From IMG/VR virus record IMGVR_UViG_3300006802_000112, positions 1 through 56,419 of that record: DNA of 56,419 bases, one strand, 5' to 3'. The notes under the pieces are model-generated. The model did not search any database. It saw nothing but the letters and a program-made list of their open reading frames with translations, and had not been told where the DNA came from. Position 1 is the stretch's first letter; every line of letters starts with the position of its first letter. The position numbers and the translations under genes are program-made. Shown here in pieces: positions 2,927 to 56,419 of this stretch. The stretch comes from a virus. Its lineage: Duplodnaviria; Caudoviricetes.

Positions 2927-3331
2927 ATGGAATTAATAAATAGTTATCCTATAAAAAAATCAGATTTAGGATTTCATGGTAATTTATTTGGTGGTAAACT
3001 TTTGGCCTGGATTGATGCTTCAGCTGCTGCTTATGCAATGCAACTATGTGATACACCTAGAATGGTAACAGTAAGTATTGATCAATGTAATTTTGAAAAA
3101 CCTGCAAGAGAGAGTCAATTAATAAAGATATATGGCTTACCTACTTACATAGGTAACACATCTATAGCTTTACATATGGAGGCTAGAGCACACAGTGTTT
3201 ATACTGGAAAACAGGTTTTAATTTTAAAAACAGAGATAAAGTTTGTACACATTGATGAAGATGGGAATCCTATCCCCATAAATGATAGGGCTAGAAATAA
3301 AGTGAGTAATAAAATTTTAAAAAAAGAGTAA
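2927..3331 (+). CDS. HotDog-fold acyl-CoA thioesterase (YciA-like)
   Basis: HGNLFGGKLLAWID...VTVSID...F.KP...FVHIDEDGNP. Confidence 0.88.
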   Translation: MELINSYPIKKSDLGFHGNLFGGKLLAWIDASAAAYAMQLCDTPRMVTVSIDQCNFEKPARESQLIKIYGLPTYIGNTSIALHMEARAHSVYTGKQVLILKTEIKFVHIDEDGNPIPINDRARNKVSNKILKKE

Positions 3332-29175: not shown

Positions 29176-32100
29176 CTATGATTGACATTCAACTTTATTT
29201 CTAGTTTCTTCTTCTGTTGGAGTAAGCATTTCAAAAGACGATTCTATAGCTGTAGCTACTTCGTTTTTATAATTTGTTATTGTGTTTGGTATGTTTTTTA
29301 TGGATGGAATTTCCATTTGAAAAGCTACTACAGGAGATATTGCATCTTCGGATGTTAATTCTGTTCTAACCCACTCATTTCCTTTATTATCAGTAATAGT
29401 TTCTATGTTTTCACCTCTTTCTTTTTTAAAGAAATCAATTGTTTTTTCATACCTTTTTAGTATACCTTGATAATCTTCGTCTATATCTTCTATACTAAAT
29501 TCATCGATATCTGCTATTTCTTCATACTGATCAGGTTGTTGTAATGTTTCAGGGTATACATTATATTCTGTAGTATATACAGTGTAATCATCCTCATATA
29601 ATACGTTAATACCTTGATTTTCTAAAGTTGTGGATATACCTTCAGACCATATGAAATCAAAATGATATTCTCTTATAGCATCATATATTTTATCTTTATC
29701 TAGTCTATATGTTTCTGTTTCTTCATCTATTAATTCGGCTATATCTTCCAATTCTGGGAGTAAATAATCGTAGTAGGAAGATTCTTTAAATTCATCCCAA
29801 GATTCTTTTGTAAATAAGTCCTTATCTTTTAACTCAGAATAAATTTCGCTAGAATCATTGTCAGCGTAAAAATCGGCTTCTTGGTTAACAAAATCATCTA
29901 TATTAAATTGATTAATTTTATCAGTAGGAATTGCTTCAAAATCAGTAGAGTTAGCATTAAAAACGGTGTGGTCTTCTCCTAGGTATTTTATAATATCACC
30001 ATTTTCTAATTCATCGGTATTCCTACTGCTCACTATGTCATAAGGTTGTAAATTAAATTCATCAGCTGACATATAGCCTTCAATTAACGCTAATGTTCTA
30101 GGTGTTGGTATTGCTAGTGTTTCCATACCTAATTCTGCGTTTCTTTTAATTTCCTCTCTTAATAAACGCTCTGTATAATTTTTACGGTGAGCAATGAATT
30201 GTTTATCTCTTAAACTTGCGTTGTCAAGTAGGCTATTTTTTAAGTTTGGTAAATCTTTTTTAGCGTTGAAGTATTTAGTGTATAATTGTTTATCTGGCTT
30301 AATTCCAGGTAAAATATTTTTTTCATAGTAGGAAACAGCATCTTCTAGTGAGGTAAATATTTCTCTACCTAATCTATACTCGTATGATTTTTTTTGCTTA
30401 TTAAATTTCTCTGTTATAAAGCTATAGGGCATTAGATAACCTTTGCCTTCTAGTTGATAATCTTGCACTTCTACTGGTTCTATTTTTTCACCTAAAGCTA
30501 AAGATACTAATGATTTAGCATAGCCCTCTTGTTCTTTTAATCTTCTTTGTACTTTTTCTTTTTGTTTTTCTATAGCATCAAAGCCTCTATTTTCTTTTTT
30601 TGCTTCCTCTATTGCCTTATTTAGGTTTTTTATAGCCTCTTTGTCCTCATTAATTGATTTAAATGCCTCTGATATGTCATTATAAAGGTCTTTAACTATA
30701 TACTCCTCACTACCCTCAAAGCTAGAATCAATATCATTGATTAACTTTTCTGTCTCTTTTATTTTTTTATAAATAGGCTTTTGTTTAGAATTTAAGTCCT
30801 TAGGATTATTTTCATAGTTAGTTAGAACCATGTCTACAGCCTTAGCTTTTTGATAAGAGTCCGATTGCATTTCAGCAACATAAACATCTTTTGTTCCAGC
30901 TTCTCTCCAAACTCTAGTGTGACCAAACTGCCCACTATTTATCTTTCTAGTTTTATTGTAGTTTTCAATCCAATTATTCGTCATCTCTAAAGACGGTGAC
31001 ATAAAGTATGCTTCCTCTTCTATATTCTCTGGTGTTATTCTAGAGTTTCTATCTACAACGTAGTTTATGCCAGATTCTCTATTTGTTGTAACTCTAAATT
31101 CTATACCATCTAAATTCTTTTCAAAATCTCTCTTAAAGTGCCCGTCTATTTGATGATCGAGTTTTGAGTTATAAATATTTGTACTAGAAAATCCAACATC
31201 CACTCCTACATTGTCTGAACCATAATCTGAATAGGTTGTACTTTCTATGACATCTAGTGGCATTATTCTAGCGTTCACTTCTCCTCTAAATTCATCAAAA
31301 GGTATTTGTGTTTTTCCTCTAAAGCCTTCTAAATTTAAGACCTCTCTAATTATTGCTTTTTCAATTGCTTTTGTTGTAGGTTGTTTTAAAATTTGATTAA
31401 TTGTTTGAATATTAACCATTTTACCTTTTTTCTTAGCAAACATCTCATCTAATAATGGTTGTATTGTGTATTCAGATGTTTGGAATTTAGTGCCACTTAA
31501 CATGTCAATAGCGACAGCTTCAGCAAATTGTTCTAGGGTTATATTCTCTAGCTCTTCTGCTGTGTATTGTGTGATTCCTAAAGCGTTTTTAATTGAGTTC
31601 CATAAATCAGTCAGCCATTCTCTAATAGCAGATTTTCTTTTTTTGTTGACTACTAATTCTCCCTTATCACCAATTAGTTGTGTTAAGGCTTCTTCGTATA
31701 ATCTTTCACCTTCTAAATTTGGTTGAGATTCTTTTACTTTATCTATATACTCTTGACCCTGTTCTTGTACTAACTGTATTCCTTTTCTATAAAGGTTTGG
31801 TCTATTTTCTTTGGCCCAAAAATTAAATAGGTGGCCAAACTCATGTATTTGTGTATTTAGTATTCTTGGGTTGTCTGTATTTAAATATACATCTCCATTG
31901 TATACAAATCCATTAGGGGTAATAGTTAAAGATTCGGTAGATAATGATAAATTTATTGGGTCATACACAATACCAAAGGAATCCATAACTTCTTCCTCTA
32001 GCCTATCTCCTATAAACTTATCTAAAATTGATACTGTATTTGGATCAAAAACTAGATACTGTGTAGTGGTTCCTATAGGGTAATTTTTTTCATATGTATT

Positions 32101-43317: not shown

Positions 43318-46008
43318 TTAAATTAGATTGTTGGCTACATATGTAAGGTAATCCCTTCTTTCTTCTATATCCATAGTATCTGTTGGGTCAAACTGAATCG
43401 TTTGTCCAAAGAAATCTGGATTAAACTGTGGGAATATACTAGCCATTAGATTCATTTTTCTATTGTAATCGTATGCAGCTAACGCTTGTTTGTTATTGTA
43501 CAACTCCCAATCCCTCATATCTTTATCTGTTTTATCTAATGCTGTAAAAGTTCTTGCCTCATATCCTAAAGCATTTTGTGCTCTTAACATACTTTCTTTA
43601 TCCCTTTGACCTGCATTGAATAAATCAGTTTGAGCTTGATTTTGCATATTCATTACATTGGTATCTCTGATTGCTTTTGCTTCAGCTCCCATAGCTGTGC
43701 CAGTTAATTGAGATAATGCAGATGCTCTTTGCACAGGATTTAAATCAGATAATTGATCTGTTGAGAAGCTTCTAGCATCAGATATAGCCTGTAATTGCTG
43801 TTCAGGGCTTAATTTTATTGGGTCTAATCTAGATAATCTAACCTCTGGAAATAATGTAGCTTGCATTCCCATTGGAGGTCTAACGTATTGATATGGATAC
43901 GCAAACATTCTAGGGAAATATGGCTTTGGAACATTTATATCTATCTCTTCTTCCTCTAGTGGTACTATTGTTTCATAGTCGGAGATAAAGAAGTCTGCAT
44001 CACCTAAATCACCTAATGTATCAAATCTAGCTTTTGTATCATCTGATAAAGAATTGTAAAATTCTTCGTCTGCTTTTACTTGCTTAGCTGTTGTATACCC
44101 TTTCTTCTTTGATTTTTCTATTTCTTCAGGTGTAAGTAAGTCTATATTTGGTAAATACCTTCCAGATGTAAATTCTCCTAGCTTACCTTCTACTTGTCTT
44201 ACTCTTTGTTGTTCTGTTAACTCTTCTAATGTGTCAGGTACAAATGTTTCTTCTTCTTTATATTTTGTAGCAGCATCTATTTCATCTTGACTTACGTTTA
44301 TTCTTCCACTTAGTATTAAATCAGCGGCGGCTCTCATGCGTGAGTCCATCCTTTTTTGTAAGGTTTTTACTTTTGGATTTACTGTATTTAATTTTATATC
44401 TTTATTAACTAGTTTTAATCTCCCCCCTTCAACTTTTACATCACTGCCAAAAACATCTAATACAATGTCTGGAAATTGTTTATACAATGCATTTAAAGCA
44501 TCTTCTGCATTTGCAATGTCTCCATATCCACCACCTTCTCCAGCACGTTTTTGTCCTCTAACATTTTCTTTATATAAAGGATTTTGTTCGTACTCTATAT
44601 CATAATCTATAGAGTCTCCATCTTGATATTTTTTTATATATCCACCATCTCTTTTTACTGATCTAAAAGATTCTAAGTATTCTTTAGGAGTTTTATTTTT
44701 TGATTCTACATTTTTCCCATATAGATTTGGGAATACTTCTTCTAGGGATTTATTATCTCTTACTACGTTACCAAAATATTTTCTAGTTCCTTGCCTTCCT
44801 AAAAAGTTTACAAGGGCTACAATGTCTTCATTTGAATAACCTGATAAGTCTACTTGATTTTGGTATTCATTAATTATATCTTTAGCATCTTGTTTTAATG
44901 AGTTTCCTCCAATACCAGTGTTATATCTATAATTAAATACTTTGTTTTGAGCCTCTTTATCTTTTGCGAATTGGTCTCTTGTTCCAGAATAAATATCGCT
45001 AGTTAACTCGTTATAAAGCTGACCAAATAAACCTGTGGCAGAGGAATTTGGATTTTTCATCAAAACACCATCAGCACTTTCAACATGTGAAATACCTTTT
45101 TTAAGGTAGTCCATATCAATAGTGAAATCATCTTTTTGTGGGACATTTATTACCTGGCCTACTTTTATTTTTTCTATGTTAATACCTGGATTAGCATTTG
45201 TTAGTTCATCGAACTTTAAACCATATTTGTTTGCTATTCCATAGAATGTTTCTCCTGATGATATAGTATGCTTACCAGCTTCTTGATATTTTGGTATTTG
45301 TCCTCCGTATTCATATTTTTTACCTGAGAGTGCTCTCATGCCTTCTTCAACGGTCATACCATTTTTTCTACAAATATCCTCGAACTTACTTCTTTTTAGT
45401 CCTCCATATTTGTACTCTCCATCTTCATTTTTTTCTTTTAAAGATTTTGTATCTTCTTGTTCATTGTAAAGAAGATCAAACATTTCTTTTTTATATTCTT
45501 CTAGCTCTTGTTTTTTTGTTTCTATATCGAATATCTTCTTTGACAGGAATTCTCTATTTACTGCTAGTGTGTTTCTATCTATTGATTTTTTATTAAGGAG
45601 CTTATTAAGTGCTTCAAAAGCTTCTTCTTGCTCTTGAACTACTTTCTCATAACCAATTTTTTTTAAGAAATTATCTAATACTTTTGAATATGTGTCTTTT
45701 TTTGAGACCTTCATATCAAAATTAGTTTCTAATTCTTTTCTTGTTTCTGGGGCTACTGTTAAATAATTAGATAACACTCTTGTTCCTTCAGGTAAATTCA
45801 TCATCATTCCACCATTAGAGTGTGTTTCTCCAATAGCTTTTTGAGTTGTTCCATCAGGATACATTATATACTCACCCTTCTCAATTTCAGCATTTGGTTC
45901 TACGCCAGTTTTTGGAGAAAGCTCCTTAGTGTAAGCATCGGTCATTAACTTTGGTAAGTCTTCTTGTCCTGCTCTTTCTATTTTATCTATATCGAACTCC
46001 TTAGCCAT
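43318..46008 (-). CDS. Modular cargo protein with LysM and lysozyme-like (SLT-like) domains
   Basis: N-terminal NAEIEKGE...GETHSNGG...RVLS domain; LysM HTISSGETFYGIANKYG...KVGQVINVP; SHVES...NPNSSATGLFGQ; Q/A-rich C-terminus; GG linkers. Confidence 0.75.
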   Translation of the reverse strand: MAKEFDIDKIERAGQEDLPKLMTDAYTKELSPKTGVEPNAEIEKGEYIMYPDGTTQKAIGETHSNGGMMMNLPEGTRVLSNYLTVAPETRKELETNFDMKVSKKDTYSKVLDNFLKKIGYEKVVQEQEEAFEALNKLLNKKSIDRNTLAVNREFLSKKIFDIETKKQELEEYKKEMFDLLYNEQEDTKSLKEKNEDGEYKYGGLKRSKFEDICRKNGMTVEEGMRALSGKKYEYGGQIPKYQEAGKHTISSGETFYGIANKYGLKFDELTNANPGINIEKIKVGQVINVPQKDDFTIDMDYLKKGISHVESADGVLMKNPNSSATGLFGQLYNELTSDIYSGTRDQFAKDKEAQNKVFNYRYNTGIGGNSLKQDAKDIINEYQNQVDLSGYSNEDIVALVNFLGRQGTRKYFGNVVRDNKSLEEVFPNLYGKNVESKNKTPKEYLESFRSVKRDGGYIKKYQDGDSIDYDIEYEQNPLYKENVRGQKRAGEGGGYGDIANAEDALNALYKQFPDIVLDVFGSDVKVEGGRLKLVNKDIKLNTVNPKVKTLQKRMDSRMRAAADLILSGRINVSQDEIDAATKYKEEETFVPDTLEELTEQQRVRQVEGKLGEFTSGRYLPNIDLLTPEEIEKSKKKGYTTAKQVKADEEFYNSLSDDTKARFDTLGDLGDADFFISDYETIVPLEEEEIDINVPKPYFPRMFAYPYQYVRPPMGMQATLFPEVRLSRLDPIKLSPEQQLQAISDARSFSTDQLSDLNPVQRASALSQLTGTAMGAEAKAIRDTNVMNMQNQAQTDLFNAGQRDKESMLRAQNALGYEARTFTALDKTDKDMRDWELYNNKQALAAYDYNRKMNLMASIFPQFNPDFFGQTIQFDPTDTMDIEERRDYLTYVANNLI

Positions 46009-46009
46009 A

Positions 46010-48631
46010 TTATTTTAAATATAGTTTTCCGTTTTCTACTCTATCTATTGTTCCACTATACTTCTTACCACCATAATTAAAAGAAATCTTTTCACCTGGT
46101 CCTTTACCCATAAATGTTTCTCCTCCCATTTTTAAATTAGTTAATGGTTCAACACTTCTTGTAAACATAAATGTATCTTCTCCTTTTGGTTTTAATACAT
46201 TATAGGTTAAACGTGGTTTCGCTATAGATGTTATTTCTCCAGAAGGATTCCTAGATATTGCATAACTAGGTATAGATTCTAAATCTTCTGTACTTGGTGA
46301 TTTTCCAAATTCTTGAAATCGATTATACATATTCCACCAATTTCTATTTTGTTTATAGTATGGGTCAGATGTACTGTCTACATATATTGTATCCTGTCCT
46401 TCAACACTTGATAGTGGATTTCCTTCTTTATCATATATTTTTCTAATTCCTCCATTTTCATACATGTTACCTCCCATCTTATAATTAGTATCAAATATAC
46501 TATTAAAAGCATTTCTTGCTTTTGGTAGTAGATACCCTAATCTTTGCGCATTTGCATAGCTACCAGGATAAAACATATCAGTAATTTCATGTAAAGGAGG
46601 TCTAGCATTTTTATAATCTTGATATAATGTTTCAAAAGCTTTTTTATTTTCTTCAGAATTGCCTTCATTTTTACCATATGCAGTTGCAACATTATCATAA
46701 AGATCACTAATCTCATCACTTGTTAAATAATCTTGAGCATAATCACTCCAATATTTATAACCAGTTGTAGGTACTAGATTCCAAAGACTAGCAGAATATC
46801 CATCAACTTCTGATGTATCTTCAATTATAGGACCTCGATATTTAGAATTAGGATTAGAATTACTTTTTCCAGCTTTTCCATCTTTTCCTCCTCCATTTTC
46901 ATAAAAAGAAGGTGTTTGAAATAACCCTCCATAATTCATCTGTGGAGCAGCACCTTGCATTTGTTGAATTACCATTTGAACCATTTGCATTGCTTGTTCT
47001 TCTGGTATTCCATTTTGAACCAATACTTGAACAACTTGTTCAGGAGTAGCACCTTGTTGTAATGCTTGAACAATCATTGCTAGTATTTGTTGTTGCTGTT
47101 GCATCATTGCTTGCTCTTGACTAGCTTGTTGAACCATTTCTTGATCTTCCATAGCTTGTTGTTCTTGCATCATTGATTGTTGTTCAGCTACAGCTTGATC
47201 TTGTGCCATTTGTTCTTCTATTTCTCCACCATCTTCCCAGGTTCCAAATCTTTTGTGCCAGTAAAGAGGTGAAAATGGGTCTTTAGCTTTTGCGGAATTT
47301 TTACCTCCCATTCTTTGCCAAAATCTTTTTTGTCTTTCTTTGTTTTTATGTTGGGTGAAATCATCCATCCCTCTATAACCTCCTTTGACTATTTTGTACC
47401 TATCTCCTTTTTTAGCTAATACTTCCCATTTGTGCTTAGCTCCTTCTGGTGCTCTTTTCTTTACGCCTACTTTAGAGAATCCTCTTTTTTTGTATCTTTC
47501 AGGTATTCCTCCTTTTTTACCACCTGCTTTAAATAACTCTGGGAATAAATCTTCTTTTAAATCTTCTAGCTCATCTTCCATGTCGACTGTAAAATCAGCA
47601 TTTGAATCTTTTAGTGCTCTTAGGAAGTTATATCTCTTCATTCCACCATCCTCAAAAGATACTGATTCAGTTGGTCTTCTACCTGTAAATGCTAGTGCTC
47701 TAACTTTACCAAATTTTTCATCTTCTGGTAAACTTTTATTAAGCTCTTTAATATCTCTATTCATATCCATAGCATGTTTTATTGAGCCTATAATTCCAGG
47801 GTCTCCATAACCAAATTTTTGGATATCTGAGTATTCTGGTAAATCTTGTCCTAAATAATTAACTTCTCCATATCTTCCAAATAAGTCTATTGCAGGAGAA
47901 AATTTTCTTTCGTTTTTTCTTGCTTGTCTACCACCATCTTCAAAAGCGTACCCTAATGCTGTTGCATCATCTTTATATTGAGGTTGTGACTCAAAATATT
48001 GTCTATTTAGATTTTTATAATACCAATCCATTGTATTATCTTGTCTTTTTTGCGCACCCATTCCTGCGAGTATGTTAGCAGCACCTCTTAATCCAGCTAA
48101 ACCTAGTCCAGCTAAACCCATTCCTGGTTTTCCTGATGCAAAGGACCTCCCTGCGTTATATAAAGCCGAGGGCGTTGACATGCCATAAGCATTAAAGAAT
48201 GGAGCCCCTGCTAAAAAACTATCGAAAGCTGTTTGCTGATTAGTTCCTTCTACACCTTCTTCTGTTATTTCTTCATTTACACCTTCTTCTGTTATTTCTC
48301 CATTTGAGTTTTGTAATAAACCTCTTAAGTTTCCTAAATTTAGATTAGGTAAATTTAAGTTAGGTAAATTTAGATTAGGTAAATTTAAGTTAAAAGGTTG
48401 GTCAAATTGTTTTTGTTCTTTCTTGTACTGATTTACAAAATCAGGGTCTATCGTTACTTGGTCTTGTAAATTTAAGTTAAAAAGTTGGTCAAATTGTTTT
48501 TGTTCTTTCTTGTACTGATTTACAAAATCAGGGTCTATCGTTGTTGGAGGCTCACCATAAACTATTTGGTATGCCTCTTCATAGGAATATCCAGCTTGCA
48601 TTAAAGCATTTAGCATTCTCTTTTCTTTCAT
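46010..48631 (-). CDS. Modular cargo protein (873 aa) with about 10 GG linkers
   Basis: Tandem repeats, Gly-rich hydrophobic helix, small basic domain and Q/M-rich helical domain, each bounded by xxxGG. Confidence 0.75.
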   Translation of the reverse strand: MKEKRMLNALMQAGYSYEEAYQIVYGEPPTTIDPDFVNQYKKEQKQFDQLFNLNLQDQVTIDPDFVNQYKKEQKQFDQPFNLNLPNLNLPNLNLPNLNLGNLRGLLQNSNGEITEEGVNEEITEEGVEGTNQQTAFDSFLAGAPFFNAYGMSTPSALYNAGRSFASGKPGMGLAGLGLAGLRGAANILAGMGAQKRQDNTMDWYYKNLNRQYFESQPQYKDDATALGYAFEDGGRQARKNERKFSPAIDLFGRYGEVNYLGQDLPEYSDIQKFGYGDPGIIGSIKHAMDMNRDIKELNKSLPEDEKFGKVRALAFTGRRPTESVSFEDGGMKRYNFLRALKDSNADFTVDMEDELEDLKEDLFPELFKAGGKKGGIPERYKKRGFSKVGVKKRAPEGAKHKWEVLAKKGDRYKIVKGGYRGMDDFTQHKNKERQKRFWQRMGGKNSAKAKDPFSPLYWHKRFGTWEDGGEIEEQMAQDQAVAEQQSMMQEQQAMEDQEMVQQASQEQAMMQQQQQILAMIVQALQQGATPEQVVQVLVQNGIPEEQAMQMVQMVIQQMQGAAPQMNYGGLFQTPSFYENGGGKDGKAGKSNSNPNSKYRGPIIEDTSEVDGYSASLWNLVPTTGYKYWSDYAQDYLTSDEISDLYDNVATAYGKNEGNSEENKKAFETLYQDYKNARPPLHEITDMFYPGSYANAQRLGYLLPKARNAFNSIFDTNYKMGGNMYENGGIRKIYDKEGNPLSSVEGQDTIYVDSTSDPYYKQNRNWWNMYNRFQEFGKSPSTEDLESIPSYAISRNPSGEITSIAKPRLTYNVLKPKGEDTFMFTRSVEPLTNLKMGGETFMGKGPGEKISFNYGGKKYSGTIDRVENGKLYLK
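48251..48542 (-). repeat. Nested tandem repeats (27-, 15- and 87-bp periods)
   Basis: EITEEGV x2 (48251/48278), PNLNL x3-4 (about 48336-48395), TIDPDFVNQYKKEQKQFDQ.FNLNL x2 (48379/48466). Confidence 0.9.
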
Positions 48632-48690
48632 AATTTGTAAAAGTAATAATTTAATTATAAATAATAAAATACATTGGTTTTTTTACTATT

Positions 48691-51606
48691 CTAAAATATT
48701 TTTGGATATCCTATTTTTTGAATTAGATTATGTGGCATTTCTCCTTTCTCAAATGTTTGTTTTGGTGTAGAATATTCTTTTAATAGTTTACCATCTTTTC
48801 TTCTTATCATTTTATAAGATTTTAGGCTACCATCATTGAAAGTTTTTGTTACTTCTCTCTCTGTGAATTTTTTCCTAGGCTCATCATCGAATGCGTATGT
48901 AATATCTTTCTCTACAGTTTTACTTGTTCCAAACATTGGTCTATATACATCTATAACTTTCTTTTTACCAAATTCTGTTGATCCTGAATCTTCCTCATAA
49001 ACTCTTCTATATCCTTTTTTAAAATTAAATTTTGGTATTGAGCCTCCATATTTGTAATCGTTTACTGAACCTCCTTCTTGAAAAGGAAGACGTTGCCTAA
49101 ACTTTGAAAAAACATTTTTAGCAGCTTCACTTTCATTAAGAAAGTATTTAAAAGCTTCAGCTTGATTATCAAAGACTTGACTTTTTCCTCCACTTAGAAT
49201 TCCAGTGTTGCCTGTTCTTAATTTATTAACTTGACTAGCATTTAAAATTCCTTCACTAGGATGATATAAAAATGGAGCTGTTTCCATTGCATTATAATCT
49301 GTCCATAAAAATTTACCTTCAGTAAATCTATCACCTGCACCTGCTCCAATTACTTCATCCAATTGTGCATTTGTCATGTCTCCTCTACCCATACTCATTA
49401 TTCTAGCTTCTTCTGGCATTCCTGCACCAAACTGCTGATTTATTTTATACTCAGGAAGTCTTTGGGTCATTATTCTAACTTTAGATGGATTTTCTAATGA
49501 GCTAAAACCATAGACGGCACCTGGTGGATTTTTAATTACCTTACCAGTTGGGTCTTTTAAGTTTTCTAAATAAAATCCTGTATCATTAGTATTTGGTGTT
49601 TTTAAAAACCATCTGCCTGTAACATCATCTGCTGTGGATGTCATGTTAACATCTGGATGTTCTATTCTATAAGTGTTTTGATATTTAGGTAAACTAAACT
49701 TTCCTTTCATTTTAGTAGTGCCAATCACGTCATCTACATACCTGACAAGACCAGGTGTATAGTTTGCTGCTCTTCTTATTGGTAAACTTTTAACAAAAGC
49801 AGGAATAGGTTCTAGATTTAATGCAGCTTTTTGTAAAGATGTTGAAAAAGGTAACATGCTTTCAGCAGCTATAGTACTAGCACTAGCTCCTGGCATAGCA
49901 GCTAAAGTTAAGCCTACATTTAATGCAGCTGATGGTGCTAAACTTAAAGCTTCAGAAGTTGATTCTTTTAATTTATCTAAAGCCGAAGTGTTAGGATTAT
50001 ATCTTCTAAATCTTCTTTGATATCTTGTTTCATCAGAGGGTGGTGAAAAAGTTGACATTAAGTCAAGAGGTAAAGCCATATAATCGGAAAGTGTCCAAGA
50101 ATCATCCATTACCTTTTTACTAAACTCTTCTTGTGCTTTTCCTTGTAATCTTGTAGGCATTGCTTGCATAGAAGGCTGTCCTTTCATTTCATTTTCTATA
50201 ATCATCTGTGCATTCTGTACAGCTTGATTATGAGATACTCCTGTTTCTTCTTTTATAGCTTTTGTTAAATCTCCTACTCTTTTTATGTGTTCTCTATCCT
50301 TTGTTATTTGTTCTTCAGTAGGTCTAAAGATATTTTCTACTGCAGTTGATTCTGAAACTTCTGGGTCTAATGTGTTTTGATAATATCCAATTGGCTTAGG
50401 TTTTTGTATATTATATTTTTGATTACCTTTTTGATATTTTGGTATAGAACCTCCTTTTTGGAAGTTTACTTTGATACCTCCTTTTTGAAATTCAAAAGTA
50501 TCTGTTTTGCCAACATCTATAAATTTTCTTTTTACCCAAGTTCCATTTGGAAGCTGTTCCCAAAAATATTTAGGTACTTGTTTTGTTCGTTCTTGAGGTT
50601 CAGAATCTTTTGTTGATTTATTTGTTAACTGCGGTTGTATATTTGTTAGCTGTGTTTGTCTTTTTATAGGTAAGCTATCTATAGGTAAGCTATCTATATT
50701 TTCTGTTTTAAAAGTTTTAGTTTCAGGATTATAGTTTTCTACAATCCATTCATTTAAAGCTTTGTTTTGCTCGGCAGTTCCTTTATAGTTTTCAATTCCT
50801 GCTTGTTCTGCTACTTTTTTTCTATTTGAAAAAGAAGAGTCTAAACCTAGTTTTCTAAATCTAACATCTACTGAAATATTTGGATCTGTTGTTCCTGTAG
50901 AATTATCTTCAGGGTAGGGATTAGTAAATACATATCCTTCTTTTTCTACCTTACGTCTAAATTCTTTTTCTTTTTTAGTAAGCATATTCCATGGTTTTAC
51001 CATTACTGGATCATAATAAGGAACCATACTTAAGTCATATATATCATTATGTGAATAATGTAATGCTCCTTGTGGTAATATATATGGACTATATAATATA
51101 GGAGGAGCATCTGGATTAGTTCTATGATCATGGGCCGATAACTTAGTAGGTTTCAAATTTGGATCATATATATAATCATAACCCCCTAAAGTACCATTAC
51201 TTTCATCAAGTCCTAAAAAATCTGATGTGCTATATAAAGTATTTGATATTTTTTTTATTCTATCTAATAAATGATCTTTTGTTAACTCTGGAAATACTTC
51301 TGGATCCTCTAACATATAGTTCTCAATATACTCTCTTTCATATCGTGTGTGATCTGCTGCATATTTTAAGTTTTCTTCTGTAAACGGACTTTCAGATTGT
51401 AGATATGTTTGTAATAGTTTGTAATCTTTTTGATTTCTATAATATGCATCTTTTGCTAATGCATTATTATAAAGTGCTAAACTATCAGCATATGTAGGTG
51501 TACCAGTTTGATATTTTGGTATTGAGCCTCCTTTTTTGAAGTTTACTTTTATTAAATTACTTTTTTTTGTTTGAGGTAAAGATTTTATTTTATAAGTCTT
51601 TTTCAT
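48691..51606 (-). CDS. Modular cargo protein (971 aa) with DUF3597-like and possible ART-like modules
   Basis: GLDSSFSNRKKVAEQAGIENYKGTAEQN; hydrophobic helices then TYRIEH...GRWF...SEGI; GG linkers. Confidence 0.7.
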   Translation of the reverse strand: MKKTYKIKSLPQTKKSNLIKVNFKKGGSIPKYQTGTPTYADSLALYNNALAKDAYYRNQKDYKLLQTYLQSESPFTEENLKYAADHTRYEREYIENYMLEDPEVFPELTKDHLLDRIKKISNTLYSTSDFLGLDESNGTLGGYDYIYDPNLKPTKLSAHDHRTNPDAPPILYSPYILPQGALHYSHNDIYDLSMVPYYDPVMVKPWNMLTKKEKEFRRKVEKEGYVFTNPYPEDNSTGTTDPNISVDVRFRKLGLDSSFSNRKKVAEQAGIENYKGTAEQNKALNEWIVENYNPETKTFKTENIDSLPIDSLPIKRQTQLTNIQPQLTNKSTKDSEPQERTKQVPKYFWEQLPNGTWVKRKFIDVGKTDTFEFQKGGIKVNFQKGGSIPKYQKGNQKYNIQKPKPIGYYQNTLDPEVSESTAVENIFRPTEEQITKDREHIKRVGDLTKAIKEETGVSHNQAVQNAQMIIENEMKGQPSMQAMPTRLQGKAQEEFSKKVMDDSWTLSDYMALPLDLMSTFSPPSDETRYQRRFRRYNPNTSALDKLKESTSEALSLAPSAALNVGLTLAAMPGASASTIAAESMLPFSTSLQKAALNLEPIPAFVKSLPIRRAANYTPGLVRYVDDVIGTTKMKGKFSLPKYQNTYRIEHPDVNMTSTADDVTGRWFLKTPNTNDTGFYLENLKDPTGKVIKNPPGAVYGFSSLENPSKVRIMTQRLPEYKINQQFGAGMPEEARIMSMGRGDMTNAQLDEVIGAGAGDRFTEGKFLWTDYNAMETAPFLYHPSEGILNASQVNKLRTGNTGILSGGKSQVFDNQAEAFKYFLNESEAAKNVFSKFRQRLPFQEGGSVNDYKYGGSIPKFNFKKGYRRVYEEDSGSTEFGKKKVIDVYRPMFGTSKTVEKDITYAFDDEPRKKFTEREVTKTFNDGSLKSYKMIRRKDGKLLKEYSTPKQTFEKGEMPHNLIQKIGYPKIF

Positions 51607-54037
51607 AATTATTCAAATTTGTAACCTAATTTTTTTAATCTAAGATAGGTATCTTTATCTACCTCATCTCCTATTTTGTAATCGTTTATAGAACCCCCTT
51701 CTTTCATGTCATAGTCTAACAATGACTTAGCTATATCGAATGCTGATTTATTATATCTAGTAATTTTTCTAGCCTCTTTTGGATTTGTTATAAATTCATT
51801 ACCAGTAATATCTTTGATTATCATATTTTCTAAAATATCTGTATCTCCCATTTTATCTTTGCCCCAATTTGCTTTTTGATAAGCAACTCTATCTAAGACT
51901 TCTTGAGAAGGAATATACTCTTTATTACCATAACCACGATTTAAAATGTTTTCAGTTCTAGTTGCAAGTCTAATATTTTTTAAACCTTCTCTAGCTCTAT
52001 TAAAAATATCTTTATATTCATCAGTACCTTTCTCTAAAAAAGTATATTCTTCAGAATCATCATCATATTTTGTGATAATTGGTTTTTTGAATAAATAAGG
52101 CTTTTGAATCCTATATCCTATAAATGGATTTTCAGGACTTTCTACATCAGTGAAGTTAAATTGTGGAAGGTTATGAACCTTAATAGCTTCTGACTTTGGA
52201 TCTGTAATAAAATCCCAATGTTCTTTTTTTGAACCCCCTCCTTGAAAGTTAAATCTTAAATTAAAATTAGAAGATATTCCTGAAGGAACTCTTGTAAAAT
52301 TTCCTGATTGGTCAGGATAACCAAATATTTGTTTATTTGCTCCAGCTCCTATAGAAAATTTACCAAGATTTTTTTGAAGATTTATAAAATAGTCTCCTTT
52401 AAAATATGGATTAGTTTTTATATCATATGGTAGGTATCCACCTATTGTACCTTCTAGTCCAAGTTCATTGCTACCTAAAGTGGCTAATCCAAAAAATCCT
52501 TCTGGGGATGGCTCTGCGAATGCATATTTATATATATTTGATGGTTTATAATTATTTTCTGGTAATCCTAAATTAATAGATGGAACTTCTGTGTTTAATA
52601 ATTTTTCTTTTAAATCAAGATATTTTTCTAAATCTGTTGTTGGTATTTTTTTTGATTTACTATTTTGATTATTTAAATAATTAAAACTATCCCCCATTTG
52701 AAATTTAGGTATTAAGCCCCCTTCTTTTTTATATCTCCAATCTGTATATTTTAAATCTATTCCTAGAGGATTTTTAGTGCCTTGTTCAATAGATTTTCTT
52801 AAAGATTCTAATTCTTGCGGATTATTTTTAATAAGGTTTAAAAGCTCTACATTTTTTTCAGTAATTGGTAAATAATTCCTTGCTTTAGCGGGGTTATAAA
52901 ATTGTGGATTTAATATTGGTTCAACGTTTCCTCTATAAAATGCATCAAAATATCTTAATTGCCCTGATGGGCTATGCCCTATTCCTCCGCTAGTTATACC
53001 TGAGCCTAATTCTTTTAAAGCTTGATTTATAGCTTCTTTTGATTCAGCACCAACACCTTTGTATAAACCAATTTCTGCATCTTTTAGGTTCATGTATGGA
53101 TAATCATATTTTGAACCAAATAAAGGTGTCTCAGAATATCCTCCACCAGATGTTGTGTAACCTTGTGTACCTTTTGAAGGGGGACTAAATCCTATATAAC
53201 CAGTATTTTTGCCATCTACATATATTTGTATAGATTTAGGATCATGTGGGCTTGGTTTTAATTCTATATTTAAATTTGGATTTTTCTTTATTCCTAATCC
53301 TTTACCACTTAATTTTTTGTTAGCATTTTGTACAGCTTTTTTAAGTAACTCTATAGGGTTTTCTGTTGTTACTACTTTTGGCTTATTTACAAATGATTCC
53401 CAACTTGGACCAGCTGTATAAATTTGTGCACTTTCCATTGCTAATCTTTCTGCTGGTGTTACAGGTTTAAGCATTTGTTTTACACCTCTAACAATTGATG
53501 GTCCAACAGCTGGTGCAACCATAGCTGCATCTAATAAACTATGCAATCCTAAGTTATTACTAAAAAAATCTTTAGTTAAATGTGTTGCACCTTGCATTGC
53601 TCCAATAGCCATACCTGGTGGAGTAAAATATGCGGCAGTTGTAAATGCTGGGTTATTTATAGTTTTTTCAACACCCATTTTAATAAACTCATCTCTTTCT
53701 TTTTGAGTAGGTTTGTAGGATGGGTCTTCCCACCATTTTTTATCTTGATTTTTTAAAGCTTTTAAATGTGCTTGAACTACTTTTTTATCTTCTTTATATA
53801 ATTGTTGTTCTTCAGTTGGTTTAGTTTTTTGGTTAGTATTTAATTTATGTAAACTTTGTGTATATGGATTGTAACCCCAATTACCAGAATACACACGTTT
53901 TCTAATCAGGTCATCATATGTTTGATTGTCAGAATATCTTGCTCTAGAGTCAAACCAATTAGAATTATCTTTTAGTGTAAGTATTTTGTTTGGTGTCTCT
54001 CCAGCAGTTTGATATTTTGGTATTGAGCCTCCTTTTT
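51504..54037 (-). repeat. 33-bp perfect direct repeat shared by two genes (encodes KGGSIPKYQT)
   Basis: CAGTTTGATATTTTGGTATTGAGCCTCCTTTTT (+ strand) at 51504-51536 and 54005-54037; degenerate copies near 50430 and 49031. Confidence 0.9.
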
Positions 54038-54575
54038 GATAATCTGTTTTCCAAGAGCCCATTCCAAATGCTAGTGCAGCTTCTTTGTTTTTTCCAAAGT
54101 TATATACTTCACCTCTTCTTTCTGCTTCTTTATAAATTTTCATCCAATCTTCTTCATTAGACATATCTACCCATGATTTATCTTCGTTTTGAAATAAGCT
54201 AGGGAATGATACCCAATTACCATTAGGTAATACTTCTGCTCTCATTAAATGAGAAGATACTGTTTCATCTAGATTTTGTCTTACACCCATTCTTTTTTTT
54301 GGCGAGTATTGTCCCCCAAGCTGGTGATTGTCTAGTGGTTTTTCTATAACATACTTAACATTATCTGAGAATTTATAGTTTTTGCCAGGCATCATTTTTT
54401 TGTACTCTAAAATTTTGCCTATTCCAATACCTAATATAGGACCTTTTTTCAATGGTGTTCCGTCATCTTCTTTCATTGTTATTTTGTTAGATGGGATAAC
54501 ATTAAATGGTCTATTTACATGTGGGCTATTCTTTTTATAGCCTTTTTTTGATATGTTAAGTATTTTATTTATCAT
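51609..54575 (-). CDS. Modular cargo protein (988 aa) with GNAT-like and beta-barrel-like modules
   Basis: N-terminal GYKKNSP...IPSNKITM...MMPG..Y.F domain; KGVGAE...SG..HSPSG; amphipathic strands ending NFNLRFNF; GG linkers. Confidence 0.7.
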   Translation of the reverse strand: MINKILNISKKGYKKNSPHVNRPFNVIPSNKITMKEDDGTPLKKGPILGIGIGKILEYKKMMPGKNYKFSDNVKYVIEKPLDNHQLGGQYSPKKRMGVRQNLDETVSSHLMRAEVLPNGNWVSFPSLFQNEDKSWVDMSNEEDWMKIYKEAERRGEVYNFGKNKEAALAFGMGSWKTDYQKGGSIPKYQTAGETPNKILTLKDNSNWFDSRARYSDNQTYDDLIRKRVYSGNWGYNPYTQSLHKLNTNQKTKPTEEQQLYKEDKKVVQAHLKALKNQDKKWWEDPSYKPTQKERDEFIKMGVEKTINNPAFTTAAYFTPPGMAIGAMQGATHLTKDFFSNNLGLHSLLDAAMVAPAVGPSIVRGVKQMLKPVTPAERLAMESAQIYTAGPSWESFVNKPKVVTTENPIELLKKAVQNANKKLSGKGLGIKKNPNLNIELKPSPHDPKSIQIYVDGKNTGYIGFSPPSKGTQGYTTSGGGYSETPLFGSKYDYPYMNLKDAEIGLYKGVGAESKEAINQALKELGSGITSGGIGHSPSGQLRYFDAFYRGNVEPILNPQFYNPAKARNYLPITEKNVELLNLIKNNPQELESLRKSIEQGTKNPLGIDLKYTDWRYKKEGGLIPKFQMGDSFNYLNNQNSKSKKIPTTDLEKYLDLKEKLLNTEVPSINLGLPENNYKPSNIYKYAFAEPSPEGFFGLATLGSNELGLEGTIGGYLPYDIKTNPYFKGDYFINLQKNLGKFSIGAGANKQIFGYPDQSGNFTRVPSGISSNFNLRFNFQGGGSKKEHWDFITDPKSEAIKVHNLPQFNFTDVESPENPFIGYRIQKPYLFKKPIITKYDDDSEEYTFLEKGTDEYKDIFNRAREGLKNIRLATRTENILNRGYGNKEYIPSQEVLDRVAYQKANWGKDKMGDTDILENMIIKDITGNEFITNPKEARKITRYNKSAFDIAKSLLDYDMKEGGSINDYKIGDEVDKDTYLRLKKLGYKFE

Positions 54576-54576
54576 G

Positions 54577-56419
54577 CTATATATTTATTAATATTTCACT
54601 AGCTCCAACCCAAGCTTCTTTATTTCTTTGTGTTCCTAACATTTTTTTAGATATTACTCCATCTGAAGCTAATGGTTTTACATTCATACTTCCAGAGTCA
54701 GATTGTAAGAAATGAACTTCTTTACCTCCTGTTTCCTCTTGTATTTTAAATGCTTCTTCTAAAATGTCTTTTAAACTACCAGTTACCTTTTTAACAATTT
54801 TTCCATCATCTGATATTATAGTAACTGTAGCTCCCAAATAAGGACCAAATTGATTTAATTTATCTATTTCAAGCCATTTATCACCATAGTTTCCTTTACC
54901 TCCTGACACTCTTAAGTTATGAGTTTTATCCCCTGATTTTTCAGTTGTTAGTAATATACCTTGATTTCTAAAGTTTGTATCTCTAGAATCTAGTTTAACT
55001 TTTTTCTTATCTTTACTTATTTCAAAATCACTTAACTTAGCCCAACTTTGTCGATATACATTTTTATCTTCAAAATCTCTCTCAGTTAAATCTTCTATTT
55101 TTACAACTTTTGCAATATATTCACCAGGAGTATCTGTTGGTATCCTTACTGTAGCAAATTTTCTTTCTGTATCTTTTTGTTCTAACACTTCTCGTTTTAA
55201 TTGATTTAATTCATTTTGTGCGTATGAATGTTGATACCCATCTGTAAAATCTTGGTCATATAAATACTCACTTATAAATATAGAGTTTGTAGCATCTGTT
55301 CTATTTTCTTTTTTTCCTTGTCTTGGTTGATAAGTAACCCTTATACCATCTGACATATCTATATAAGTTTTACTATAAATTTGTCCATAATCATCTTTAT
55401 AGGTCTTATCTCCTAAGGTAATTTTTCCTTTTAGTCTATTGCTTGATAAACCTTCAAGGTAAGGGTCTACTTTCTGTGATTCTTCGTCTATTATGAATCT
55501 TTTTGTAGATGTTTCTTTTTGAATTTCTTGTGTTTTTTGTTTGGGTAAATATTTTGAAATAAGATTTTCCGTTTCTTTTTCGATAAAGGGTTTTTGAATA
55601 TTTTTAATTGGAAACTTATCAAAGGTATTGTATGGCTTATCCATTAAGCTAGGTGGTTTTAAGTTATCTTCTATTATAGAGTCACCTTCTATTATATCTA
55701 TATTTAAGTTTACTTCACTTTGATCAATTTCTTCTTCTTCCACTAGGTTCTTACCCTCTGATCTATCTTTAGTGTCTTTTACTTGTTTAAAGTAATCGTC
55801 TAGCTCTGAAGGATTATCTAAGGGTGCTTCCTCTAAATATGTCTCAATTTTTGTAAATGTTCCTTCATCACCAAAAAGTTCTTCTATTGATTCATTTATA
55901 TTATCTAAAATAGAGGGTTCAATTTTATTACGTCCTGAATTTTCCCAACTTTCGTTTATCTCTACAAGTTTAATTAAGTCTTCTTGAGTAATTAATGGTT
56001 CTTTAAGAGGTCTACCAAGTGGGTCTAATTGTTGTTCTTTATCGGTTTCTATTTCTGGTGTGTATCCTTCCGCTTGTGAAATAAGTTCTATTAGTTTAGT
56101 GTCGAAACTTTTTTCTTCAGTGTCTTTAACTTTTTCTTTTTCGCCTTCATTAAATTCTCTAGTTGCTTCAATTAAATCTTCAGGAGAAATTGGGTATTCT
56201 TTTTTAGTGTCCTTAGTTATTTTTTCTTTATTTTTATTAAATTCTCTAGTTGCTTCAATTAAATCTTCAGGAGAAATTGGGTATTCTTTTTTAGTGTCAA
56301 TTTTAGAATAATCTGATTCTTCAAATACATCTTGCCAAGTTTTTAATTCTGGTATAGTTGTAGGTTTTTCTGATTTTCTTTTATCTTCAATTTTAGAATA
56401 ATCTGATTCTTCAAATACA
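54577..56419 (-). CDS. Large acidic protein, 5' truncated by window
   Basis: Frame of ORF 54577-55743 stays open upstream through the terminal repeats, so GTG 55743 is probably not the true start. Confidence 0.7.
   Translation of the reverse strand, partial: VFEESDYSKIEDKRKSEKPTTIPELKTWQDVFEESDYSKIDTKKEYPISPEDLIEATREFNKNKEKITKDTKKEYPISPEDLIEATREFNEGEKEKVKDTEEKSFDTKLIELISQAEGYTPEIETDKEQQLDPLGRPLKEPLITQEDLIKLVEINESWENSGRNKIEPSILDNINESIEELFGDEGTFTKIETYLEEAPLDNPSELDDYFKQVKDTKDRSEGKNLVEEEEIDQSEVNLNIDIIEGDSIIEDNLKPPSLMDKPYNTFDKFPIKNIQKPFIEKETENLISKYLPKQKTQEIQKETSTKRFIIDEESQKVDPYLEGLSSNRLKGKITLGDKTYKDDYGQIYSKTYIDMSDGIRVTYQPRQGKKENRTDATNSIFISEYLYDQDFTDGYQHSYAQNELNQLKREVLEQKDTERKFATVRIPTDTPGEYIAKVVKIEDLTERDFEDKNVYRQSWAKLSDFEISKDKKKVKLDSRDTNFRNQGILLTTEKSGDKTHNLRVSGGKGNYGDKWLEIDKLNQFGPYLGATVTIISDDGKIVKKVTGSLKDILEEAFKIQEETGGKEVHFLQSDSGSMNVKPLASDGVISKKMLGTQRNKEAWVGASEILINI
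56149..56419 (-). repeat. Coding tandem repeats (87- and 90-bp periods)
   Basis: 63-bp copies at 56149-56211 and 56236-56298 (DTKKEYPISPEDLIEATREFN); 33-bp copies at 56297 and 56387 (VFEESDYSKI). Confidence 0.9.

Follow-up and report, generated by a model that had tools for sequence, protein, structure and literature searches.

What does a short, recurring peptide element do when it lies between protein segments that have no resemblance to each other? The question is raised by the viral contig IMGVR_UViG_3300006802_000112 of IMG/VR, which was analysed over its whole length of 56,419 b (the window) and has an estimated completeness of 44% and a G+C content of about 30%. A five-residue motif ending in two glycines recurs in four of its open reading frames (ORFs), A988, B971, C873 and D896, of 988, 971, 873 and 896 amino acids (aa), as had been described in an initial annotation made from the sequence alone. 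All four lie on the minus strand. The motif, termed the joint below, follows the consensus [FYM]-[QKE]-x-G-G and has a doubled form, ...GG-S-I-P-K-[YF]-Q-x-[GA]-x, with a period of 9 residues. Joints mark the points where similarity to relatives starts or stops, where cassettes are inserted or deleted, and where genes are split or fused. The explanation tentatively favoured here is that the four ORFs encode chains of modules of the ‘polyvalent’ cargo type and that the joint is a candidate cleavage site.

Abundance, confinement and conservation of the joint

Expected motif counts were derived from 300 composition-preserving shuffles of each protein. The pattern [FYW]..GG occurs 17 times in the four ORFs (2.6 expected) and [FYWML]..GG 20 times (5.0 expected), in agreement with the about 20 copies counted originally; the pattern then used, [FYWMLIV][QKE].GG, is present 18 times (1.5 expected). 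The tandem form, written as GG.{4}[FYW]..[GA], was found 9 times (0.3 expected). Every tandem listed in the initial annotation is present, and one further copy is located at B971 residue 23. The other 34 ORFs of the window (~14,000 aa) contain 4 matches to [FYW]..GG, 10 to [FYWML]..GG and a single match to the tandem pattern. The latter lies in the replication-arm ORF 2927-3331, lacks a hydrophobic residue at the third position ahead of the GG, and is regarded as a chance match. The downstream giant proteins of 1746, 1838 and 1936 aa contain no tandem.

The codon pairs for GG differ between copies (GGA GGC, GGG GGC, GGT GGT, GGA GGT), which indicates that the motif is conserved and selected at the protein level. 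The copies A988-179, B971-23 and B971-851 also have long identical DNA runs in common, and runs shared between some copies of the window reach 92% over 26 nucleotides (nt; D2) and 83% over 63 nt (D3). At 54000-54044, 51499-51543 and 50422-50493, K-G-G is encoded as AAA GGA GG, giving perfect Shine-Dalgarno-like AAAGGAGG strings inside the genes. Their reading as internal Shine-Dalgarno sequences was rejected, and they are considered a by-product, because other joint copies use different codons.

The joint is also frequent in homologues: 77 sites were counted in 16 homologues of B971 (17.1 expected) and 46 in 20 homologues of D896 (8.8 expected), although both sets include near-duplicates and the counts are not independent. 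Among the 616 ORFs of at least 200 aa in 84 loci that were scanned, only 8 ORFs from 7 environmental loci are enriched at p<0.001. These lie directly upstream of a D896 homologue or include it (L010, L011), and show the variants GGYYQEGG and TPQ[LM]xxGG; none is from a gut-type locus. Gut-type D896 homologues retain two or three sites, whose places are fixed. A 90%-complete relative of 128 kb has 112 ORFs of at least 100 aa, and those ranking 1, 2 and 4 in enrichment are three adjacent genes of the same block. Confinement of the motif to this gene block is supported by these comparisons.

In an alignment of 21 D896 sequences, G235 is invariant and G236 nearly so, down to 25% identity. In 137 and 219 distinct contexts, the joint has F/Y/M/L(/W) at position 0 and GG at positions 3-4. 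Conservation is mainly N-terminal to the GG, and [SYE]-[IV] is preferred after it. The AlphaFold2 model of D896, built from the 21-sequence alignment, has a mean predicted local distance difference test (pLDDT) score of 64.7; it shows a folded LysM domain at residues 245-290 and a helical domain at 299-449. The two joints that bracket this region are modelled as coil with pLDDT <50 (228-244 and 451-499), beside the folded LysM, and are thus predicted to lie outside folded domains, as the proposal of the initial annotation requires. The model of B971 contains a beta-hairpin of low confidence with the GG at its turn (residues 370-383); with a mean pLDDT of 43.5 it is too poor for placing the B971 joints.

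Joints mark module borders, cassettes and gene fusions

Homology of A988, B971 and D896 to other proteins breaks off internally at 34 points, 15 of which are within 15 aa of a motif GG. Random placement gave a mean of 3.9, and 15 was reached in 0 of 10,000 trials; the motif list of this test was extended by three non-strict sites (A988 87 and 619, D896 455), and near-duplicates are present among its homologues. Breakpoints cluster a second time at B971 557-626, next to the degenerate half-motif KGKFSLPKYQ. Distant homologues of B971 share it only in part, with a coverage of 10-39%. The original observation that the motifs fall at the borders of modules is borne out by these data.

Gain and loss of individual modules can be followed in several relatives. 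P0003 (1396 aa) consists of A988 1-88 and 178-971 at 95-100% identity, without the 89-aa cassette that separates these parts in A988; the A988 part is followed by the B971 609-859 module at 96% identity and then by the A988 tail. The same cassette is found at 74% identity inside the unrelated P0034 (1279 aa). In P0004, A988 2-188 is fused to B971 21-397 at the YQKGGSIPKYQ joint (A988 residue 179), and P0002 retains four pieces of B971 with differing inserts. The LysM-containing cassette of D896 is missing from six homologues of 734-737 aa (P0022-P0027). One of these, P0023 (737 aa), is 98.8% identical to P0020 (959 aa) after the joint and differs from it by the LysM cassette; its single hybrid joint, KKYELGGIKKYQ|NGTTE, combines the left half of joint 1 with the right flank of joint 2. 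The hybrid joint and the clean loss of the cassette are what recombination between two direct repeats leaves behind. Seven related loci have a longer ORF in which a joint precedes the D896 core, at the place where the window has the stop of C873 and the start of D896. The losses, fusions and inserts in P0002-P0004, P0020, P0022-P0027 and P0034 support the proposal that the modules between motifs vary independently among relatives. The C873 gene looks unusually plastic: in its N-terminal third and its middle (48251-48542 and 47090-47184) very recent tandem duplications have left a 77-nt sequence twice at 99%, a 27-nt sequence twice at 96%, and 15-nt NLPNL repeats.

The modules had been described as unrelated effectors, a term that is justified for only a few of them: LysM and DUF5754 in the window, and SET, GH19, YkuD, ART-PolyVal, SLT and PG_binding_1 in homologues. 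The majority match no family, and Pfam searches of four modules at E up to 10 returned nothing but sub-threshold noise. The LysM of D896 (residues 247-290) was recognised by Pfam with E 4e-11. The initial annotation had named a LysM+lysozyme module between two motifs, and a LysM cassette does lie between two joints, but for the ‘lysozyme’ half (295-452) Pfam gave no match (best CTD10, E 0.063) and PDB sequences gave none below E 0.5. The PHROG matches of D896 labelled ‘endolysin’ or ‘transglycosylase’ cover the LysM part alone. Foldseek matched the D896 model to nothing in PDB but LysM domains, and no match reached E<=0.001. By eye, the strings E-S, GLFGQ and YNTG in 295-452 resemble the SLT consensus, an unconfirmed lead. 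The DUF5754 module and a DUF5872-like KRADGSYS string recur in C873-like ORFs of relatives. The B971 609-859 module is common to 13 homologues of 679-1654 aa and received no assignment from Pfam, PDB profiles or Atlas (tried on 600-845). Modules of homologues include GH19 with LysM, YkuD, or SET. One moderately hydrophobic segment rich in Ala/Gly is present in each of A988, B971 and C873.

The first module of A988, the N-terminal handle, is present in 281 cluster representatives at E<=1e-3. Among the 150 matches listed, it starts at or before residue 43 in 131 and is internal in 19, in proteins of 62-2926 aa. It is also repeated within single proteins, with 18 separate stretches in P0084 (2624 aa) and 7 in P0108. 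The listed handle-bearing proteins except P0013, which is part of the B971 set, (n=149; P0077-P0225) contain 235 sites (104 expected). Only 9 of the 101 long handle-bearing proteins are individually enriched, and dense usage of the joint is therefore lineage-specific. Pfam recognised ART-PolyVal in 2, PG_binding_1 in 2, and SLT, DUF5872, DUF5754 and DUF6782 in 1 each of 42 handle-bearing relatives. A paralogous relation between this module and the N-terminal domain of D896 was rejected, as no alignment was obtained.

At the other end, 35 of 145 proteins (7.9 expected) have their last GG at a distance of 20-29 aa from the C-terminus. Tails ending G-[YFW]-x-[VIFLK]-[EDK] (GY-x-[VI]-EE-like) were found in 31 of the 185 relatives collected; A988 has such a tail, and the end of B971 (...IGYPKIF) is similar by eye. 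Conserved tails follow the last GG in many relatives, for example ...IVSELTKKEIDKLIKQGYIIEEID and ...EPYTIGDKVDYETMLQLKELGYEFE (P0005-P0215), and may act as a terminal signal of their own. They fall into at least five unrelated families, all preceded by the same aromatic-x-x-GG, and the GG element therefore resembles a border signal more than the tag itself. The coordinates of these features are given in Table 1.

Table 1. Positions in the window of the four ORFs, their modules and joints, and the zincin-like module of a neighbouring protein
Feature	Position	Strand	Remarks
A988	51609..54575	-	988 aa; handle module, 89-aa cassette, larger modules, C-terminal tail
A988 motif sites			3 strict, plus HQLGG (residue 87) and KKEGG (residue 619)
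N-terminal handle module	54312..54575	-	A988 1-88, then GG joint
Mobile 89-aa cassette	54045..54311	-	A988 89-177, between HQLGG and YQKGG
Joint DYQKGGSIPKYQTAG	54000..54044	-	A988 residue 179
Joint YKKEGGLIPKFQMGD	52689..52733	-	A988 residue 616
Joint NFQGGGSKK	52206..52250	-	A988 residue 777
Joint MKEGGSINDYKIGD and tail	51612..51710	-	A988; conserved C-terminal tail ending ...LKKLGYKFE
B971	48691..51606	-	971 aa; 5 motif sites, two double/triple tandems among them
Joint NFKKGGSIPKYQTGT	51499..51543	-	B971 residue 23; FKKGG-SIPK-YQTG, the copy additional to those of the initial annotation
Triple joint EFQKGG-IKVN-FQKGG-SIPK-YQKGN	50422..50493	-	B971 residues 373-396
Double joint PFQEGGSVNDYKYGGSIPKF	49015..49086	-	B971 residues 842-860; homology breakpoints at 846, 856, 863
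B971 module 609-859	49030..49782	-	Most widely shared module
C873	46010..48631	-	873 aa; 10 motif sites, Q/M/E-rich low-complexity stretches, recent internal duplications
Ten C873 joints	46040..47947	-	FEDGG x2, FKAGG, WEDGG, MNYGG, YENGG x2, YKMGG, LKMGG, FNYGG
DUF5754 match	47309-47437	-	C873 399-441; 27.4 bits, exactly the Pfam cut-off
D896	43318..46008	-	896 aa; conserved core 1-200 and 465-896 with LysM-containing cassette inserted
Joint EYKYGG	45373..45417	-	D896 residue 199; G202 nearly invariant
Left bracket joint KYEYGGQIPKYQEAG	45274..45318	-	D896 residue 232; pLDDT <50 over 228-244
LysM-containing cassette	44656..45276	-	D896 245-451; LysM 247-290; helical domain 299-449, family unconfirmed
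Right bracket joint VKRDGGYIKKYQDGD	44614..44658	-	D896 residue 452; pLDDT <50 over 451-499
Zincin-like module of G1838 (1838 aa, 29176-34692)	31480..31944	-	HEFGH at residues 950-954, window 31831-31845

Viral relatives and comparison with known systems

The window has two arms, one of small genes on the plus strand and one of very large genes on the minus strand, with the boundary at about 19,286. A megablast search of GenBank phages with the region gave zero matches and hence no close relative, single-protein queries of IMG/VR with B971 or D896 found none, and a scan of viral contigs for the exact back-translated K-G-G-S-I-P-K-Y-Q gave 0 matches. A tblastn search matched the N-terminal part of D896 at 37% identity to a ‘virion structural protein’ of the Cellulophaga phages phi17:2 and phi4:1, and also to a structural protein of the epsilon-crAss-like phage csAssE-Sib. 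The contig is related to phi17:2/phi4:1 and to the gut epsilon-crAss-like phages of ~150 kb. A tblastn check was passed by 333 candidate stretches, and 80 related viral loci were kept. All 80 have the D896 core (residues 1-200 and 465-896), and nearly all, including those of the ~150-kb gut phages, have the gene pair of D896 core followed by an E1070-like gene. A C873-like gene is located directly upstream of the D896-core gene in about 9 environmental loci. The phi17:2 homologue of D896, gp041, has six motif sites and is annotated as virion structural protein by similarity to phi4:1 gp40, and a match to PHROG 36695 carries the same label. These annotations support the placement of the four ORFs among the virion proteins.

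Iyer et al. 2017 (PMC5512222) describe as polyvalent proteins long polypeptides of phages, plasmids and conjugative elements that combine unrelated modules of disparate activity; they are proposed to be packaged with the DNA, injected along with it and processed by zincin-like peptidases. The proteins considered here are likewise multi-modular, and ART-PolyVal is present in 2 of the 42 handle-bearing relatives and PolyVal-associated domains in homologues of the neighbouring G1838. In contrast, the four proteins of the window match no PolyVal family of Pfam (ART-PolyVal, LPD families, MPTase-PolyVal), and LysM and DUF5754 alone are recognised in them. In the main text of PMC5512222, ‘linker’ and ‘glycine’ occur 0 times and ‘cleavage site’ once, and no joint motif is described.

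The cargo proteins C1 and C2 of Bacteroides phage crAss001 (gp45 and gp46) are reported by Bayfield et al. 2023 (PMC10172136) to be internal to the virion and are proposed to unfold and traverse the tail. Their genes have the same position as the four ORFs, after the tail/muzzle genes and ahead of those for the giant virion proteins (by synteny with csAssE-Sib and phi17:2). A transmembrane helix is predicted in gp45, compared with the moderately hydrophobic segments of A988, B971 and C873. The D896 model gave weak Foldseek matches to ‘Cargo protein 1 compact domain’ (E 3e-3 to 9e-2, TM 0.07-0.16). A sequence link to gp45/gp46 was rejected, with no BLAST match better than E 2.4 and an hhalign probability of 0.25%, and neither protein is enriched in the motif (3 sites, 2.1 expected; 0 sites, 0.4 expected). 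Considering their module content together with the crAss001 gp45/gp46-like gene position, the four ORFs would fit the ‘polyvalent’ type of injected cargo or ejection protein.

The ejection proteins of podoviruses (T7 gp14-16, P22 gp7/16/20) are described in the main text of Swanson, Hou and Cingolani 2022 (PMC8954989) as internal and mosaic, with a peptidoglycan-hydrolase domain that is mobile between proteins. The mobile hydrolase domain would parallel the LysM cassette of D896 and the GH19, YkuD and SLT modules of relatives. The word ‘linker’ occurs 0 times in that text, which describes no border motif. No SLT/lysozyme catalytic domain of the T7 gp16 type was recognised in D896 295-452 by Pfam or PDB sequence search.

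The initial annotation had likened the motif to the processing sites of adenovirus and African swine fever virus (ASFV). There too, many virion proteins have a short site ending in GG that flanks segments which are removed or separated; adenovirus maturation is the subject of the review PMC4246237. Two findings speak against the analogy: the hydrophobic residue precedes the first Gly by three positions here and by two in the consensus quoted originally, and the clan CE cysteine proteases (C5/C48) are absent from all 5 related records searched with Pfam, which are phi17:2 and four related contigs. A double-glycine leader of the C39 type was rejected as well, as Peptidase_C39 was found in 0 of these records and most sites are internal or repeated and not N-terminal leaders. 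For crAss-like phages, Drobysheva et al. (bioRxiv 10.1101/2020.03.07.982082) state that the neighbouring giant virion proteins fused in some phages (virion-RNA-polymerase polyproteins) are ‘likely cleaved’ and note a zincin-like protease domain in one of them; the passages searched define no cleavage sites. G1838 has likewise a conserved HEFGH module, whereas the giant proteins of the window are poor in the motif, and the polymerase motif DFDxD was not found in these giant neighbours. Polyvalent, mosaic ejection and crassvirus cargo proteins are thus known, and a conserved GG joint was not found described in the main texts searched.

Interpretation of the joint and candidate proteases

The four ORFs may represent a lineage-specific expansion of injected multi-module ‘polyvalent’ cargo/ejection proteins in a podovirus of the marine Bacteroidota type. 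Each protein would be a chain of small folded or low-complexity modules separated by short disordered joints, and the series would be opened by the conserved N-terminal handle and closed by the conserved D896 core. Since the aromatic residue and the GG are kept at nearly every joint whatever modules flank it, one common factor probably recognises the joint. The likeliest factor would be a protease that separates the modules of each chain at virion maturation or after ejection, and the candidate enzymes are the zincin-like HExxH modules of neighbouring virion proteins, or a host enzyme. Taken as a whole, polyvalent cargo chains with module joints as candidate cleavage sites are the best explanation available, one that is plausible and is held tentatively.

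Cleavage is favoured over a plain hinge because conservation is mainly N-terminal to the GG, because a joint precedes even short terminal peptides (the 35 of 145 proteins above), and because fused and split forms coexist at joints. It is further favoured by the zincin-like modules nearby (IHEFGHL in G1838 and its homologues; phi17:2 gp042), by the scarcity of GG in the giants that carry HExxH modules, and by the proposal of virion polyprotein cleavage in crAss-type phages (bioRxiv 10.1101/2020.03.07.982082). A narrower version appears unlikely: a virion-packaged protease, probably zincin-like with HExxH, would cut the joint, the handle and the ~25-aa tail would be loading signals, and plug-and-play cassettes would be packaged, injected and freed. 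It would constitute a phage counterpart of adenovirus/ASFV polyprotein maturation with another enzyme class and another site geometry.

A serious, though somewhat less likely, alternative to cleavage is that the joint is an uncleaved short linear motif, a flexible hinge that docks the chain on a common partner, for instance a scaffold, a chaperone, the portal or the inside of the capsid, so that the neighbouring module is packaged and later threaded out through the tail. Joint, handle and tail would then form a loading system like the capsid-targeting sequences of T4 or the cargo peptides of encapsulins. Motif-like extreme C-termini (...GGYIVEEIN, ...GGFTVEEIY), which have no downstream module needing release, are as such a system would have them, as are the conserved ~25-aa tail after the last GG and the occurrence of the handle in proteins of widely differing lengths. 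The 9-residue tandem period and [SY]-[IV] after the GG would suit a bound strand or hairpin, ‘cleav’ and ‘proteoly’ occur 0 times in PMC10172136, and a protease consistently linked to the motif was not found. However, a tag is unnecessary at almost every module border, the tail families after one GG element point to a border signal, AlphaFold2 gives the joint no confident structure, and the docking partner is putative. It is improbable that the joint is a permissive flexible linker without any partner, which persists as a recombination route for cassettes because recombinants joined at GG linkers fold correctly, its aromatic and polar positions hitch-hiking from an ancestral linker. The clean repeat-mediated cassette loss (P0020 versus P0023), the long identical DNA runs between copies, the many recent internal duplications of C873 and the fission and fusion of ORFs at joints agree with such a linker. 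Plain linkers normally diverge fast in sequence, whereas here the aromatic residue and both glycines are kept at 25-30% identity with differing codons, and the motif is kept in the gut-type clade with its 2-3 copies, where no cassette traffic was seen.

Tandem joints could also be structural repeats, beta-hairpin units akin to cell-wall-binding repeats, with peptidoglycan or polysaccharide of the cell surface as their ligand; they would then form a functional domain in place of a border signal. This is very unlikely. The aromatic and glycine residues at a fixed period, the low-confidence hairpin predicted in B971 and the LysM domain adjoining joints agree with it, but most sites are single or double and too few for a repeat domain, the ten C873 sites are isolated with variable downstream sequence, both D896 sites are predicted as coil, and no Pfam repeat family matches. 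That the pattern arose without function from Gly/Lys-rich coding sequence of low G+C content has a practically negligible probability. The proteins are indeed rich in K, G, N and E, and several KGG copies read AAA GGA GG; against this stand the shuffles, the breakpoint and homologue counts, the few sites in the other ~14,000 aa, and the conservation of the pattern in distant homologues.

The protease search suggested in the initial annotation yielded candidate zincin-like HExxH modules in neighbouring proteins and no adenain-, Ulp1- or C39-type enzyme. In G1838, the 155 aa around HEFGH are the best-conserved part, with 44% identity to a 2469-aa ORF of a relative, and IHEFGHL is mostly kept in its homologues (n=39, 1216-2969 aa). 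Several homologues contain ART-PolyVal or LPD23, and GNAT and methylase domains, as well as further PolyVal-associated Pfam domains, also occur; G1838 therefore resembles a classical polyvalent protein. An Atlas search yields the same zincin-like lead. The 39 giants with the HExxH module contain 183 GG dipeptides (256 expected) and are not enriched in the motif (21 sites, 27.3 expected); G1838 itself has 0 GG (3.6 expected). The G1838 module is present in the two motif-rich relatives tested. In phi17:2, gp042 (L001 16717-18936), which is next to the motif-bearing gp041, has two HExxH motifs, both HExxHAM, and HExxH occurs in the gene upstream of the motif-rich ORF in L015 (4606-6708) and L018 (3481-6804).

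Several results weigh against the favoured explanation, in addition to the near-duplicates in the homologue sets, the non-strict sites in the breakpoint test and the poor model of B971. A docking peptide or a hairpin could also explain the [SYE]-[IV] after the GG and the constant 9-residue period. The HExxH region of G1838 is not recognised by Pfam. Neither phi17:2 nor a 96%-complete relative, each with 5-6 joints, has the G1838 module, which is also missing from 5 gut-type genomes with 2-3 joints each. Among gp042-like ORFs of eight related loci (L010-L015, L018, L042), HExxH occurs in L015 and L018 only. Given this patchy distribution of the G1838 module and of the gp042 HExxH across joint-bearing genomes, no single candidate protease tracks the motif. 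MPTase-PolyVal has no match above the cut-off in the window and four relatives, the one match being of 11.8 bits in phi17:2 gp042, and Peptidase_C48, S78, C39, C5 and CLP_protease of Pfam were each found in 0 of 5 records (phi17:2 and four related contigs). Gly-Gly specificity is not known for zincins. The minus-strand ORFs of the window between 19287 and 56418 have no Pfam C5/C48 match.

Large multi-module injected phage proteins are known, and the joint bears on the exchange, the packaging and the possible separation of their modules. It predicts where virion proteomes might show new termini, and it provides a sequence rule by which the uncharacterised cargo proteins that marine Bacteroidota phages encode can be split into modules before annotation or structure prediction. 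A natural route for loading foreign modules into phage particles is hinted at as well. The cultured relatives phi4:1 and phi17:2, the latter with its six sites in one virion protein, make the idea directly testable.

The partial ORF upstream of A988, at 54577-56418 on the minus strand, which is open at the contig end and was read for 613 aa, has zero motif sites and zero family matches; the peptide blocks TWQDVFEESDYSKI and KKEYPISPEDLIEATREFN are repeated in it. The large virion ORFs on the minus strand between 19287 and 56418 are nearly free of cysteine, with 0-2 Cys in each protein of 613-1936 aa.

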